A DNA stretch of 64,000 nt from an uncultured delta proteobacterium. GTDB taxonomy: Bacteria; Desulfobacterota; Binatia; UBA9968. Shown in pieces: positions 10,221 to 44,118 of the stretch; position 1 is the first letter of the stretch, and every line of letters begins with the position of its first letter. The position numbers were made by a program, and so were the translations under genes. The stretch covers positions 64,001 to 128,000 of the forward strand of contig CAWJZV010000024.1 of NCBI GenBank assembly GCA_963847445.1, in the 5' to 3' direction. Below the pieces are notes generated by a model. That model worked only from the letters and a program-made list of their open reading frames with translations, had not been told where the DNA came from and did no database searches.

Positions 10221-11510
10221 ATGAGTACCAAGATCCGCGTCGTTCACTACTTGAATCAATTCTTCGCCCAGATCGGCGGCGAGGACAAAGGCGATGTCGG
10301 CCCAACCGTAAAAGCCGGGGTGATCGGCGCCGGCCGCGCGCTGCAGCAAGCGCTCGGCGAAGATGCCGAAGTGGTCGCGACGATTTATTGCGGCGACAAT
10401 TATTTCGCCGAGCATCAAAATCAGGTCGTCGCCGAACTGCTTCGGCGCACAGCGGAATTCACAGCCGATCTATTGATCGCCGGCCCGGCCTTCGAGAGCG
10501 GCCGCTACGGCGTGGCCTGCGGCGCTATTTGCCAAGCGGCGCAGCAAAAACTCGGTATCGCCAGCGTTGCCGGCATGGATGAAGACAACGTCGGCGCCGG
10601 CTTGTATCGCAAAAATATTTACATCGTCAACTCAGGCGCATCCATCGCGCGCATGGTGCCGACGCTGCAACGCATGGCAGCTTTGGGATTGAAACTGGCG
10701 CGCCGCGAAGCGATCGGCAAACCGGCGGACGAAGGCTACCTGTCACGCGGCATCAAGCGCAACGAATTCGCCGCCAAGCCGCCCGCCGAGCGCGCCGTCG
10801 ATATGTTGCTCGCCAAACTGGCCGGCAAAGAATTTCACTCCGAAATCGCCACGCCAAAATTCGCCGGTGGCAAACCGGCCGCGCCGCTGGGCGATTTGAA
10901 ATCAGCGGTGATCGCACTGGTCACCGACGGCGGGCTAGTGCTGGAAGGGAATCCGGATAAGATCGAGCCGGGACGGCCAACCCGCTTCACGACCATTCCG
11001 ATTCACAACGTCAACACGCTCGCCGCCGACAAGTACGACGCCGTCCATTCGGGCTACGACACCGCCAGCGCCAATCTAGACCCCAACCGACTGGTGCCGC
11101 TCGACACCATGCGCGAACTCGCCCGCGAGGGCGTCATCGGCAGCGTCCATGAATTCATTCACTCCACCGGCGGCGCCCACGCCGCGGTGGAGAACGCCGT
11201 GCAAATCGGCCGGCAGATCGCCGACCAGCTGAAAGCCGCCGGCGTCACCGGCGTGATCCTCACCTCCACTTGAGGCTCCAGCACTCGCTGCGGCGCAGCG
11301 ATCAGCAAGGAAATCGAAAAGCTGGAAATCCCGGTGACGCAGATCTGCACGATGATCCCGGTGGCCAAAGAAGTCGGCTCGCTGCGCGCCATCGCCGCCG
11401 GCGGCATCGTCAGCCCGACCGGCAATCCGGAACTATCGCCGGAAAAAGAAAAACAGTTCAGGCGGGACCTGGTGCTGCGCGCACTGGAGACACTGCAGCA
11501 AGAAGTGTGA
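10221..11510 (+). CDS. Glycine/betaine/sarcosine reductase-family selenoprotein B (GrdB-like), Sec at codon 351 (TGA 11271-11273), 429 aa
   Basis: VVHYLNQFFAQIGGEDK, CGDNYF, GPAFESGRYGVACG, DPNRLVPLD; in-frame TGA in ILTST-U-GSSTRCGAAISKEIEK, after which the frame continues 78 codons of GrdB-like C-terminus (PTGNPELSPEKEK...RALETLQQEV) to TGA 11508. Confidence 0.93.
11285..11301 (+). promoter_or_regulatory. Candidate bacterial SECIS element of the grdB-like gene
   Basis: Perfect 7-bp stem TCGCTGC/GCAGCGA with GGC loop, after an 11-nt spacer following the UGA. Confidence 0.75.
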
Positions 11511-39077: not shown

Positions 39078-41314
39078 TTATTGTTGTTGGACTCGCAACG
39101 CGCGATAAATCGTCTCGGCACTTACCGGCAGATTAAACAGCCGCACGCCAACCGCGTCGGCGATCGCGTTGGCGATGGCCGCCGGCGGCGCGTTGTTGGC
39201 GAACTCGCCGATGGGCTTGGCGTTGTGCGGGCCGACGCCGCCGCCGGAGGTGACTAGAACGGTTTTCAACTCGAACAGATCGGCGATGGACGGCAATTTG
39301 TAATCGCCGAGATTATTGTTGGTCACTTTGCCTTGATCGATGACGATCTCTTCCATGAGTCCCTGGCCGACGCCCATCACCGCCGCGCCGTCGATCTGCC
39401 CCTGATGCGTCAACGGATTGATGATCGTGCCGACATCGTGGGCGGTGACGAAGCGATGGAGTTTCACCGCGCCGGTCTCGGGATCGACTTCGACCTCGGC
39501 GACCTGTGCGCAGATGTACGAAAACTCGTCGGGTGCGCGATAGTCTTCATAGACGGTAACGAGCAGCGGTTCCGCCGTTTGAGCGACAACCCGGCGCAGC
39601 AATACTTGTTGGCCCCGGATCTTGGCGCAGCGAAAACTTGCCGCCGTCGAAGTCGATGTCTTCGGCGCGGCATTCCAACATGCGCGCGGCTTGGGCGAGT
39701 AATTTTTCGCGCAGCTCGTCGCAGGCTTTGATCATGGCATTGCCGGCGACGTAAGTCATGCGGCTGGCGCGCATGCCGCCGTCACGCGGCGCCGTGTCGG
39801 TGTCGCCGATGACAACACGCACATGGTCAATGCCGATTTTCATCCGATCGGCGACCAACTGGCGCAAGATCGTGTGCGTGCCCGAGCCTTGATCGATGCT
39901 CGGGCTGACGATTAAGTAGCCGCCGTCCGCTTCGGCGCTGAGAATCACGCCGGTGTCGCCGCCGCTGATATGGCGGCCCGAAAGCGCGATGCCGCGCCCA
40001 TGATTGGCTTTCTTCGGTTTCTTCCAACCGGCGGCGTCCAGTGCGCCTTGGAGCACTTCACGAAAGCGCACGTCTTTCAACTCTTGACCGACCGCGTCGG
40101 CTTCTCCGTCGCTAAGAAAGTTCTTCAGGCGAAACTCAGCGGCATCTATAGCCAGTTCTTTGGCGATGATGTCGGTGTGGCAGTCCACCGCGAATGCCGT
40201 CGCCACCGCGCCGGGACTGCGGTAGTAACCGCCAGGGACGGTGTTGGTATAGATCTGCATGAACTCAATGTCGGCGTGCTCGATGCTGATACTGGCCCCC
40301 GGCATAGTGCCAGGTCGCCAACGACGTATTGGACTTGAGCGCGCCGTATCCGCCGCTGGCATGGACGGCGCGCATTTGCCGCGCGACCAGCCGGCCGTCG
40401 CGCATTACCCCGCTCTTGATCGTGATCACCGTCGGATGCGCCGGATTGCTCGCCGACAGCTCTTCGGCGTAGGTCATGATGAACTTCACCGGCCGCCCGG
40501 TTTTCTGCGCAAGAAAATAAAGGATCGGCAAGTCGACACCGTCACCCTTGCCACCGAACTCGCCGCCGACGTTGACCACGTTCATGCGGATGCGCTCTTC
40601 GGCCAAACCCAGGCATTTGGATAACTGGCTGCGCACTCCGAAGGGATTTTTCACTCCGGCCCAAACTTGCACGCGGCCGTCCGGCTCAATCGCAACGGTC
40701 GCCGCGTGCGGTTCGAGGTAGCCTTGATGGCGCGCCGGTACATTGAAAGTGTGTTCGAATACCAGATCGGCGTCGCGGAAGCCTTGCTCGACATCGCCTT
40801 TCTTCCACGCTAATCGCGTGAGACCGTTGCGCAGGTCGGCGGCGAGAATATTCTTCGGCGCGCCATCGTACTCGGCGACATTGTCATGGAGCTGCGGCGC
40901 GTCCGGCGCCATCGCTTGCAGCGGATCGAACACCGCGGCAAGAATTTCGTAATCGACGTCGATCAATTGAATGGCTTCCTCGGCGGCATCCACGGTCTCC
41001 GCCGCCACCGCCGCCACCCGGTCGCCGATGAAACGCACTTTGTCCCAGCACAGCACCGGCAAGTCGCGAATCTGCTTGCCGATAAGCAGCCCGCGCACAT
41101 CCGCGCCGGTGATAATCGCCTTCACCCCGGCAACTTTCTCCGCCTTGCTGGTATCGACGCGGACAATCCGCGCGTGCGGATGCGGACTGCGCAAGATTTT
41201 CGCCCACAGCAGCCCTGGCAGCTTCACATCGGCGGCATAGATCGACTGGCCGCTGACCTTGTCGCCCGCCTCCGCCCTCGGCACCGACGCCCCAATCGCT
41301 TTGAATTCAGCCAT
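39078..41314 (-). CDS. Xanthine dehydrogenase/CoxL-family molybdopterin-binding subunit (frameshifts near 40290 and 39605)
   Basis: LRSPHPHARI, YLEPH, VGGEFGGKG, DQGSGTHT, GDTD, AEVEVDPETG, DVGTIINP, GQIDG, KPIGE. Confidence 0.9.
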
Positions 41315-41531
41315 GGTGTTAGTTTCCTTAATCTATTTTTGCCAGCGCCGCTGGATAGTTAATCAACCTTCAGGGTAATTAGTACGCCAGAGCACCCAAG
41401 GTCAAGGTTGGATGGCAACAATGATGCGAAAGAAGACTTTGTATCTCAGATAAATTGCCAGAACATGAAGCGGTTGGACGCGAACTGGTGAGATTTATCG
41501 ATTGGATGAAAAATCCAATTTCACCACGAAG

Positions 41532-41710
41532 TGAATCATGATCTTACGCACGCCCACAGATAATGTAAAGTACCGGAAGCCATTCCTTAGACTCGTCATG
41601 CCGGCGCAGGCCGGCATCCAGCGGAAGGGATATACCGGCCTGCGCCGGTATGACGGAACAGAGAGTCGTATCGATGCCCAGTCATCGCTGCACGTGTATT
41701 TTCTAAGGAG
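41532..41710 (+). mobile_element. Non-coding site-specific inserted element, copy B (179 bp)
   Basis: Same ends and target as copy A: CACCACGAAG|TGAATC...GTATTTTCTAAGGAG|ATCACGAA. Confidence 0.75.
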
Positions 41711-41856
41711 ATCACGAAAGCCACGAGACTGAAGAGGACGGGTTTCAAACCCGCCCCTACAATTCCAGAATCTTATTTTGCGCCCTTTGCGGTTAAATAC
41801 TCCGGTTCTGAATGACTTCCTTGGTTACGGCTCAACTGAACTTTGCCATTAGTGCA

Positions 41857-42958
41857 TCACAGCCCATACAACGCCTTGGCATTGTCGCTGAGGATTTTCT
41901 GTTTCACTTCCGCTGACAGATCGGTGCGCTCTTTGAAAATTTTAATCGCGTCGACATCGCTCGAGGTATCCATGTGGCCGTAGTCGGTGCCGATGACCAG
42001 ACAGTCCGCGCCGCCGTTCTCGACCAGATAGGGCAAGTCGTCGGAGTTTTCACAGGTGACAAACATGCCGTAGTCGCGCGCGATGTTCTCCGACCAGGGC
42101 CGGTCCAAAGTCTCGAAAACGGTTCTTGGCTTCGTGCAGCACCCAGGGCAGCCACTGCGCGCTGGCTTCGATAAAACCCCAGCGTAGTTTGGGAAATAGT
42201 TGATGGACGTCGCTGAGCATCACATCGCTGAACGCCGCCACCGTCGGCACGCGGAAGCGATGCAACCCCGCCGCCTGCGACACCGGATGGCGATAGAGAT
42301 CGTTGAGCCAAGTGTTGCCGTTGGCGATATGCACCGCGATGGGAATGTCGAGCTTCTGCGCTTCGTCGTAAATCGGATAGAAGTACGGATCGGCGAGCAA
42401 GCGGCTGCCTTCGATGGGCCGCATTAAAACGGCGCAGGCGCCATGCTGCTTGGACCAGCGGATTTGGTCCAACGCGTCCGGCATGCTCAAGATCGGCGGC
42501 ATGCACGACCATAAGAGACGCCCCTTGCCATGTTCCCAGATATCGGCCAGCCATCGGTTCCAGCTTTTGCACAGCGCCACTTCCACCGCGGCCCGTTCGG
42601 TCACGCCCTCGATGAACATGGTGTTGTGCAGCACTTCGACATCGACGCCGGTCTGATCCATATGTTCCAAACGCATGTCGACATTGCCCATCTCGCGCGA
42701 CGCATCCATGTCGGCGAACTTGCGTCCCGCCTGTTTGGCGCGTTGTTCCAGCGCCTCAGGGGAGAAAGCCGGGAATCGCAAACCACGCACCTTGCCATCG
42801 ACGAGCCAAAACTGCTGCTTCACGCCGCCCTTCTCAGCGGTCTGCAACGGTGTCGGCCGGTACTGCCGCTCCGACGGATCCATGAACTCCCAAGTCCGCT
42901 CGCACTCGACAACATGCGCGTCCGCATCGATCACAATCGCCTGTCCATTGGTCGTCAT
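41857..42958 (-). CDS. Amidohydrolase_2-family protein (frameshift near 42110)
   Basis: IDADAHVVE, MDQTGVDVEVL, WNRWLAD, FPKLRWGFIEA, GTDYGHMD, ILSDNAKALYGL; paralog of 27808. Confidence 0.88.
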
Positions 42959-43048
42959 GTTTAAATCTCCTCTTCGGCCCGAGACTATTTGATCGTGCTG
43001 CATCCTGTCAATATTGCGGAGCGCGAGGAGTTTATTTTCACCACGAAG

Positions 43049-43256
43049 TGTCCATAACTTACGCTCGTCTACAGAATATGAAAATGGATGGACTCCCTCC
43101 ATAGGCGGTCTGCTTGAACGCGTCGTTCCCGCGCACGCGGGAATCCAGGTTTGGTCTGCGCCCAATTGGCCTGGATTCCCGCTTTCGCGGGTATGACGGA
43201 ACCCAGGTGACCTCTTCGTTGTGCAGACCCTCTCCTTGCACGTATTTTCTAAGGAG
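43049..43256 (+). mobile_element. Non-coding site-specific inserted element, copy C (208 bp)
   Basis: CACCACGAAG|TGTCCATAACTTACGCTCGTCTACAGAATATGAAAAT...GTATTTTCTAAGGAG. Confidence 0.72.
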
Positions 43257-43293
43257 GTTTCGTAGGGTGTGTTTCGCGTTCCAGGTTGCAAAG

Positions 43294-43319
43294 AGGGCGG
43301 GTTTCAAACCCGCCCCTAC
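43294..43319. repeat. GTAG-type REP palindrome GGGCGGGTTTCAAACCCGCCCCTAC
   Basis: Further copies at 19686, 29308, 41735, 45039, 45934 and 60741. Confidence 0.85.
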
Positions 43320-43442: not shown

Positions 43443-43888
43443 ATGAATCTGGCAAGACAATCTTCTGACCACCACCGATGAGATCCGCGATCTAATCAAT
43501 ACAAACCAAACGGATCGCCGTCCTCGGCATCAAGACCGACGCTCAAGCCGACCAGCCGTCGGTGTACGTGCCGCAGTACATGCAACGCGCCGGCTTCGAG
43601 ATCATCCCAGTGCCGGTGTATTACCCGGACGCTACGAAAATCTTAGGTGAGACGGTTTATCGCCAGCTAACCGCCATCCCTGGCGACATCGACATGGTCG
43701 ACGTCTTCCGCCGCCCCAACGACATCGCCGGTCACATCGAAGACATCTTGGCGAAGCGACCCAAGTCCGTCTGGTTTCAATCCGGCATCCGCAACGACAA
43801 GGCGGCGGAGATATTCGCCAAGGCGGGGCTAAAAGTAGTCCAAGACCGCTGACTGATGGTCGACCACCGGCGGTTCGCCGGGAATTGA
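43443..43888 (+). CDS. YccU-like CoA-binding protein (CoA_binding_2), candidate selenoprotein (TGA 43850-43852); N-terminal indels near 43449 and 43501
   Basis: KRIAVLGIK...PSVYVPQYMQRAGFEIIPV, IDMVDVFRR, VWFQSGIRN, AGLKVVQDR-TGA-LMVDHRRFAGN-stop; family consensus is VVxDRCxxVEH. Confidence 0.82.
43867..43881 (+). promoter_or_regulatory. Candidate SECIS element of the CoA-binding protein gene
   Basis: 6-bp all-GC stem CCGGCG/CGCCGG with GTT loop; loop begins after 20 nt following the UGA. Confidence 0.65.
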
Positions 43889-43898
43889 GATCGTTTGG

Positions 43899-44118
43899 GG
43901 TTACGAGTTTCGGGTTTCGAGTTTTCGGACTGCCGCGGCGAATTCAGGCTGCTCGATATTTTGCGAATCTAGCAACTAACGATCCGTCATACCGGCGCAG
44001 GCCGGCATCCATCCCCTTTTTCCTCTTAGATTCCGGCCTGCGCCGGAATGACAGAAAACGGGGCGATTTGAACTGGGCTGACGGCTTCCACTGAACTCGA
44101 AACCCGAAACTCGAAACG
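43899..44118. repeat. 7-nt periodic palindrome enclosing a GTCATACCGGCGCAGGCCGG...CCGGCCTGCGCCGGAATGAC pair
   Basis: GTTACGA GTTTCGG GTTTCGA ... CTCGAAA CCCGAAA CTCGAAA; inner pair at 43987-44052. Confidence 0.8.

Follow-up and report, generated by a model that had tools for sequence, protein, structure and literature searches.

How should a TGA codon be read when it falls, in frame, on the invariant cysteine (Cys) of a protein family: as a stop, or as selenocysteine (Sec)? The question is raised by a small gene at positions 43443-43888 on the forward strand of a stretch of DNA of 64,000 nucleotides (nt), called here the window, from an uncultured soil delta proteobacterium of the Binatia (contig CAWJZV010000024.1, positions 64,001 to 128,000; assembly GCA_963847445.1). 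The gene encodes a coenzyme A (CoA)-binding protein of the CoA_binding_2 (YccU/YneT/TT1466) type, and its reading frame meets a TGA at 43850-43852. An original prediction, made from the letters of the window, held that this TGA encodes Sec. Comparison with related genomes indicates that 43443-43888 very probably encodes a genuine selenoprotein with Sec at 43850-43852, and the explanation of the locus as a whole, in which a chemistry involving CoA is the more tentative part, is held with only slightly less assurance. The recoding mechanism itself is ordinary: the UGA would be decoded by Sec-tRNA(Sec) delivered by SelB, SelB would be recruited by a small hairpin starting 14 nt downstream of the UGA, and eleven more codons would be translated after Sec insertion.

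A TGA codon on the invariant cysteine of a CoA-binding family

Direct reading of the window bears out the arrangement that was first described, in which the open reading frame (ORF) runs through VVQDR to the TGA at 43850 and then continues in frame. The eleven codons that follow (43853-43885; CTG ATG GTC GAC CAC CGG CGG TTC GCC GGG AAT, encoding LMVDHRRFAGN) lead to the true stop codon at 43886-43888, which is TGA here and TAA or TAG in most relatives. The full product has 147 amino acids (aa), with Sec as residue 136 in the numbering of intact relatives. The post-Sec codons complete a C-terminal D-R-[U/C]-L-M-V-[D/E]-H-R motif (U denoting Sec), and the L, M, V, H and R residues that follow the Sec/Cys column are invariant among 28 aligned orthologs. 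The match to PF13380 (CoA_binding_2) runs straight across the TGA, covering model positions 1-115 of 116, and it scores 115.3 bits for the read-through protein and 107 bits in a six-frame search of the genome, the gathering cut-off being 22.8 bits. PF13380 is the sole Pfam domain detected in the read-through protein, which is thus a stand-alone domain, and no NCBIfam model matches the protein.

The claim that the TGA falls on the conserved Cys of the family also holds against solved structures. The nearest match in the PDB is TT1466 of Thermus thermophilus (1iuk/1iul; E 6.7e-25, aligned to residues 1-123), and TT1466, PH1109 (2d59/2d5a) and 2duw are of the same family and length, each with a single CoA-binding domain and likewise without an assigned function. 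All three have Cys at the Sec column (TT1466 '..vvadrClmvehkrl', 2duw '..vvmdrCpaie', PH1109 '..ivanrCmmreherl'), and the start of the helix after this Cys (L/M-M-V/R-E-H) is homologous to the post-Sec residues here. The C-terminal motif of TT1466, D-R-C-L-M-V-E-H, is the same as that of the window's gene, but with Cys instead of UGA/Sec; the D-[RL]-C C-terminal motif of the family is therefore present here with UGA in the Cys column. Orthologs are 146-153 aa long and the solved relatives mostly 138-149 aa (3ff4: 122 aa), and intact orthologs of 146-148 aa begin M-[NTS]-W-Q at an ATG equivalent to 43443. Sec is the only Cys or Sec residue of the protein, and no other Cys is conserved among the aligned orthologs.

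If the TGA were instead a real stop, the product would be a 135-aa protein ending VVQDR, and the conserved 33 nt beyond it would function as RNA without being translated, for instance as a terminator or stabiliser. Public annotation does end the protein at the TGA, giving 135 aa: among the best 120 public protein clusters, 98 cover 90% of the query and stop at the TGA, and 22 are full length. The five of the 98 short clusters that were fetched all end ..VVQDR, and the three fetched from the 22 full-length clusters all have Cys. A stop at this point would remove the most conserved motif of the family, in which C, L, M, V, H and R are invariant.

TGA and cysteine codons among relatives

The related set comprised 61 genomes of the same order (this genome and 60 relatives); these genomes are kin, so the counts are not independent trials. 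An ortholog was found in 35 of the 61, with one in-frame TGA in 23 and none in 12, which settles whether the TGA is private to this genome: it is not. The codon itself was read at 30 orthologous loci, where it was TGA in 20 and TGC or TGT in 10, with no other residue encoded, and four additional loci gave two TGA and two Cys codons. TGA is present in 19 of the 20 orthologs from the window's genus (the main genus) and in 4 of 13 from a second genus, and Cys is found in two other genera of the family. Every TGA form that was read has another 10-14 open codons in frame and terminates at the same place as the Cys forms. One locus, L039 (genome G005, flagged as unpublished), is counted in the codon, hairpin, synonymous-site and tree sets; without it the 18 species compared below become 17 and all else is unchanged, and the public record L065 gives an identical protein row. 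A second genome flagged as unpublished, G035, is counted only in the selA and tRNA-Sec tallies of the order. Residue 4 after the Sec/Cys column (as in L-M-V-D-H-R) is Asp in all main-genus TGA forms and Glu in close Cys forms.

Searches beyond the order covered a sample of the phylum and sets of protein clusters, which are samples and not a census; in all, 61 + 401 genomes, 80 loci and 270 protein clusters were covered. In a set of 401 genomes sampled evenly across the phylum, orthologs at E up to 1e-25 were found in 28, and this genome alone had TGA. The best 80 loci of a species-genome scan comprised 6 TGA, 52 TGC and 22 TGT codons, a tally that leans to Cys forms because one of the two search patterns behind it contained Cys, and that includes 8 loci duplicating loci read earlier. 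The 6 TGA loci are titled Candidatus Binatia bacterium, uncultured delta proteobacterium or similar, and the loci with Cys codons are mostly from Pyrinomonadaceae and other Acidobacteriota. In the best 150 representatives at 50% identity, termination at the Sec column was confined to the Binatia-type cluster and two fragments. As far as sampled, the Sec form of small CoA-binding proteins appears to be confined to Binatia.

These comparisons also bear on a more trivial explanation, namely that a TGC or TGT codon was turned into TGA by an error of base calling or assembly. Indel errors do occur nearby in the assembly. The same TGA is nevertheless present in 22 other related genomes, 98 public clusters end at it, and contigs from two independent sequencing runs contain it. 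The original prediction had called for a check of TGA against TGC, and in the contigs of runs X2 and X3 positions 43850-43852 are covered unchanged, while the third codon positions at 43834-43846 differ. No sequencing run contained half or more of the words of the stretch examined. An error at this codon is exceedingly improbable.

A SECIS-like hairpin and frozen codons

Downstream of the TGA lies a hairpin that resembles a selenocysteine insertion sequence (SECIS). It had been described as a 6-bp GC hairpin with a G-U-U loop 20 nt downstream, and it was found as such at 43867-43881 on the forward strand, where CCGGCG (43867-43872) and CGCCGG (43876-43881) form a 6-bp G+C stem around a GTT (GUU) loop (43873-43875). 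The spacer is 14 nt from the UGA to the stem and 20 nt from the UGA to the loop, and RNAfold recovers the hairpin with an energy of -11.0 kcal/mol. Published criteria for bacterial SECIS (bSECIS) elements specify an apical loop of 3-9 nt, a stem of 4-16 bp, a G in the first two loop positions, a distance of 16-37 nt from the UGA and an energy at or below -7.5 kcal/mol (PMC13188914, Fig. 2 legend), and the hairpin at 43867-43881 lies within all of these limits. It agrees with the canonical bacterial SECIS (the E. coli fdhF type and the consensus) in position, loop size, G-U loop start, stem length and energy, but it is very short, a triloop minihelix of 15 nt, with no sign of a conserved lower stem.

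The hairpin is conserved together with the TGA. A hairpin of -9.8 kcal/mol or better with a G-first triloop is present in all 21 distinct TGA forms (GUU in 18, GUC in 1 and GGC in 2), and the window's own hairpin type is kept in all 19 distinct TGA forms of that type (GUU in 18, GUC in 1). Just 14 of 82 distinct Cys forms reach -9.8 kcal/mol, and the median energies are -11.7 kcal/mol for TGA forms and -5.1 kcal/mol for Cys forms. Constraint is also visible at synonymous sites across 18 TGA-bearing species of the genus. Of the degenerate codons, 42 of 44 vary synonymously in the stretch from -45 to -1, as against 1 of 8 from +1 to +9, the sole variable codon of the frozen stretch being Asp (GAC/GAT); codon +10, immediately past the stem, is freely variable again. 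The 14-nt spacer, which lies outside the stem, is frozen as well, and it is in frame. Conservation of the downstream peptide and hairpin, which had been named as a point on which the Sec reading could fail, thus extends to all TGA-bearing homologs. In the second genus the hairpin is a different one, GGUCGCC/GGC/GGCGACC, situated 23 nt after the UGA, encoding other residues (S-P-A-A-T) and common to all 4 TGA forms.

Several observations weigh against reading the TGA as Sec. A hairpin of this quality is not exclusive to Sec, since the 14 Cys forms reach the same energy. Taken alone, the folding energy of the 61-nt stretch downstream of the UGA is not significant (z = -0.96); the significance of the hairpin comes from conservation rather than from folding energy. 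The stem is invariant in the main genus and so offers no compensatory changes, the variation seen being one G-C to G-U change and one U to C change in the loop. The stem also coincides with the codons for R-R-F-A-G, and the genome G027, which has a Cys form and belongs to the same genus, retains the stem with a CUU loop. Finally, the sole contig from an RNA library spans only 43866-43960, and transcription of the gene is not shown by it.

A hairpin of this kind could have a function of its own at the RNA level, as the real-stop explanation requires. A non-coding element would leave unexplained that the spacer outside the stem is frozen and in frame, that the TGA forms end their frame where the Cys forms end, and that the Cys codon was struck precisely in two lineages whose hairpins differ but lie at the same distance; nor does a T-run follow the hairpin. 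A real stop at 43850-43852 is very unlikely, and these data argue strongly for Sec at this codon.

Selenium machinery and an internal control

The original prediction expected the organism to recode UGA and proposed that sel genes be confirmed in the genome. This expectation was upheld for selA (569.8 bits), selB and a Sec-containing selD, which are clustered on contig C14 (191492-195726). The selD of this cluster carries its own in-frame TGA, and selA and selB are present but frame-broken as assembled. Across the order to which the TGA-bearing genomes belong, selA was found in 56 of the 61 genomes. A match to the tRNA-Sec model above the Rfam cut-off was found in 45 of the 61 genomes, mostly at 73-78 bits, although some of these matches are second, weaker hits that may be other tRNAs.

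As for selC, a complete tRNA-Sec gene was not found in this assembly, which is 91.8% complete, and this too counts against Sec decoding. It was also looked for, and not found, within the sel cluster of contig C14. The best Rfam tRNA-Sec matches in the genome (45 bits, cut-off 47) are tRNA-Ser according to ARAGORN and were rejected. ARAGORN reports an 82-nt tRNA-SeC (tca) at C2:139122-139203 with the anticodon at position 30, which is probably a false call, with no Rfam match at E up to 1. The tRNA-Sec of a relative matches this genome only by its last 24 nt, at C12:77579-77602 on the reverse strand, followed by GCCA and with no 5' part. In sequence, this fragment looks like what remains of an attachment site duplicated when an element integrated at selC, in which case the intact gene would be unassembled.

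The window also contains a second selenoprotein gene, which had been pointed out as a clear grdB-like Sec gene and proved real. This GrdB-like gene (Pfam GRDB, 422 bits) lies at 10221-11510 on the forward strand, with its Sec TGA at 11271-11273 in the context T-S-T-U-G-S-S-T-R-C and its true stop at 11508-11510, and its orthologs retain the TGA. It has a hairpin with a 7-bp stem and a GGC triloop 18 nt after the UGA. The hairpin design is the same as that of the CoA-binding gene, for which the GrdB-like gene serves as an internal control. About six further loci of this family occur in the genome, and five related genomes have 1 to 6 copies each, all with an in-frame TGA; judged by these gene counts, the GrdB-like selenoprotein family is expanded in Binatia.

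Frame breaks at the 5' end of the assembled gene

The frame from the ATG at 43443 had been taken as continuous. Here the original prediction missed a defect of the assembly, although it described the rest of the ORF correctly: the assembled gene requires three frames, with the first 22 codons affected. The first break is an extra T at 43448, just after the ATG AA start, and the second is an extra A at 43501 (both on the forward strand), and each aligns with a gap in all five same-genus relatives. Both extra bases are missing from contigs of the independent soil run X2 that are ~98% identical to the window; one X2 contig continues as TGGCAAGAC past 43448, and two omit one letter at 43500/43501. 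The public protein P0002, 98% identical, has an unbroken N-terminus. Other genes of the assembly are similarly broken. The selB gene is divided into 4 pieces, selA is interrupted by an internal TAG and a frame shift, and in the neighbouring region (40265-43291) the upstream amidohydrolase gene is separated into two parts, 41857-42108 and 42050-43291. The broken selA and selB on contig C14 and the split amidohydrolase gene fit an assembly with a general indel problem. Because relatives and near-identical contigs lack the breaks, and because other genes are broken alike, the extra bases at 43448 and 43501 are probably sequence or assembly errors and not signs of gene decay. Without them the gene has 147 codons, as in its relatives.

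This copy is nonetheless frame-broken twice as assembled, and a different interpretation would be that the family is a selenoprotein family but this copy is a decaying pseudogene, the breaks being real. The need for three frames in the N-terminal 22 codons is what decay would produce, and no contig at ≥99% likeness spanned 43448/43501. Such decay is hard to square with the absence of the breaks from the five relatives, the X2 contigs and P0002, or with the rest of the gene, which is intact and under the same constraint, and the broken selB, selA and amidohydrolase genes point to assembly quality. A pseudogene is unlikely, and an intact gene with errors in its assembled sequence is the preferred interpretation.

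Evolutionary history of the Sec form

A likelihood tree was built from 101 distinct sequences with the Sec/Cys column masked. The main-genus TGA forms all fall in one clade (SH-aLRT 99), and the Cys form of G027 (L038) is nested within this Sec clade. Cys forms surround the two second-genus TGA forms that the tree includes (clade support 98). To account for the Sec label, 3 changes are required on the tree, and well-supported branches force at least 2 of them. The simplest reading of the tree is that Binatia gained Sec on two occasions, with a separate hairpin in each case, and that Sec reverted to Cys once. The stem with the CUU loop in G027 looks like a fossil SECIS that would have lost its loop G after the reversion from Sec to Cys. 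Searches of G027 (92% completeness) recovered neither selA nor the selB wing domain, and neither selD nor tRNA-Sec. A loss of the Sec trait in this genome was considered and rejected, since five grdB-like genes are kept there, each with an in-frame TGA; the Sec machinery of G027 is more likely unassembled than lost.

A possible chemistry with CoA

Sec insertion is costly, and in most known selenoproteins Sec occupies a chemically active position. In the alpha subunit of succinyl-CoA synthetase (SCS), Cys123-alpha adjoins the thiol of CoA, and the redox centre of CoA-disulfide reductase is Cys-S-S-CoA. The SCS-alpha cysteine (E. coli Cys123-alpha, at the GPNC position) has reportedly been studied for a role in catalysis, by Hidber et al. 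in 2007. In the protein described here, Sec and the thiol of bound CoA might form a two-part redox centre with an Se-S bond, a proposal that we consider plausible but somewhat short of probable. CoA would sit in the Rossmann pocket of the protein, bound non-covalently; Sec, placed where the last strand ends, would adjoin the CoA thiol, a placement based on homology and on an observation in YneT; and Sec would cycle between a selenolate and an Se-S bond to CoA. The redox pair may handle CoA disulfides or CoA-modified (CoAlated) proteins. Because the protein lacks any other Cys or Sec, an Se-S bond must involve an outside thiol, for which bound CoA is the obvious choice.

The observation in YneT comes from Bacillus subtilis spores. 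There, YneT is one of four proteins covalently modified by CoA, and the site is Cys126 of the peptide TVIMDLC(126)IK (PMC8127865). YneT is described as a 135-aa putative CoA-binding protein, which places it in the family. Its Cys126 corresponds, by motif, to the V-x-x-D-x-C position held by Sec here, with the difference that YneT is a Cys form from a Firmicute; the equivalence is judged by motif. Among the best 80 loci, D-L-C and D-M-C variants also occur in the present subfamily. The original prediction had proposed that the family Cys is chemically active. This is a reasonable inference, strengthened by the CoA-Cys disulfide of YneT, and the activity could be redox or acyl transfer.

A second likeness concerns SCS alpha and ADP-forming acyl-CoA synthetase (ACD), enzymes that have further catalytic domains. 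Sec sits five residues before the end of the PF13380 match, and the GPNC Cys of an ACD-like paralog in this genome is at the same distance from the end of its Pfam model. The GPNC of this paralog aligns with the GPNC of the genome's SucD in BLASTP. Profile comparisons with SucD (probability 0.3%) and with the ACD-like paralog (2%), made from a shallow alignment (Neff 1.5), gave no alignment that reached the Cys. A functional precedent is the Sec form of CoA-disulfide reductase (TIGR03385, motif UGxP), which is catalogued among known selenoproteins (review in Applied and Environmental Microbiology, AEM, 2026). In that enzyme Sec would take the place of a Cys that forms a mixed bond with CoA. 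The fold there is that of an unrelated flavoprotein, whereas the protein described here has no FAD/NAD domain, PF13380 being its only domain; the likeness is one of working and not of membership.

Interpretation of the chemistry is made harder by two points. The equivalences with YneT and SCS rest on motif and profile register, not on residue-level alignment, and the gene neighbourhood yields no redox clue. The gene is alone on its strand, flanked by opposite-strand genes (XDH-like, amidohydrolase, alpha/beta hydrolase and methyltransferase) in an arrangement that is conserved within the genus only. No neighbour occurs at more than 12 of the 80 loci, the number at which the most frequent one, an acyl-CoA dehydrogenase, is present.

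Sec could be real and yet have another role, as an acyl acceptor (forming a selenoester), in binding a metal or sulfane sulfur, or in pairing with the thiol of a partner protein. The acyl-CoA dehydrogenase neighbours are in keeping with an acyl role, as is the reported interest in catalysis by the SCS-alpha GPNC Cys. Set against these roles, the sole direct observation on this residue in the family is a disulfide with CoA, and a second conserved Cys with which Sec could pair is lacking in the protein. Many known selenoproteins, moreover, resemble thiol oxidoreductases or carry redox motifs (AEM 2026 review). Such other roles are possible but rather doubtful, and the CoA-based redox centre is the preferred, if tentative, reading.

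A broader proposal is that the whole YccU/YneT/TT1466 family would be a CoA-dependent thiol-disulfide oxidoreductase, a 'CoA-redoxin', whose active site is completed by the thiol of bound CoA. It would remove or transfer CoA from CoAlated proteins or from CoA disulfide. This generalization is speculative, and we regard it as less likely than the redox centre proposed for the Sec protein itself. Among the papers listed in searches of the literature on YccU, TT1466, PH1109, CoA_binding_2 and PF13380, none appeared to concern the function of the family.

Annotation and novelty

The named public clusters are labelled CoA-binding, uncharacterized or hypothetical protein, and none is labelled selenoprotein. 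Neither PF13380 nor any CoA-binding or YccU entry appears in Table 1 of the AEM 2026 review, which covers 119 families and subfamilies of prokaryotic selenoproteins, and the main text of the BSepDB paper (111 families) does not contain 'CoA'. Literature searches found no paper that combines Binatia with selenocysteine, nor any that combines selenoprotein with CoA-binding. The family is apparently uncatalogued as a selenoprotein family, although the supplementary lists of BSepDB and deep-Sep and a 2026 study of groundwater metagenome-assembled genomes, reported to include candidates without validation, may hold the candidate.

Repeats around the gene

Right after the gene, at 43888-43926, lies an intergenic repeat, GTTACGAGTTTCGGGTTTCGAGTTTTCGG, over which the summed depth of contigs from unrelated soil runs is very high; at 43900-43919 the depth is 72 in run X1 and 285 in run X3. 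TTTCGAG/TTTCGGG runs similar to GTTACGAGTTTCGGGTTTCGAGTTTTCGG are also found 3' of the gene in relatives, and by its sequence the repeat appears to be one of a family of short repeats with a wide distribution. Further repeats are probably represented by the G+C-rich palindromic units at 43300-43319 and 43985-44050.

Significance

The locus adds a family to the selenoprotein catalogue and documents an unusually small SECIS minihelix in Binatia. Current annotation ends such genes early, as in 98 of the best 120 public clusters. The wider interest lies in the family to which the gene belongs. The YccU/YneT/TT1466 family spans bacteria and archaea and is structurally solved but without a function, and two independent placements of Sec on its single invariant Cys would mark the residue that does the chemistry. 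If the CoA-redoxin proposal is true, the two Cys-to-Sec replacements in Binatia would amount to a natural experiment exposing the catalytic residue. We know of no dedicated bacterial enzyme described for reversing protein CoAlation. Together with the CoA-Cys disulfide of YneT, Sec leads to a testable proposal, that of an Se-S/S-S redox pair between protein and cofactor, which may bear on how bacteria reverse the CoAlation of their proteins.

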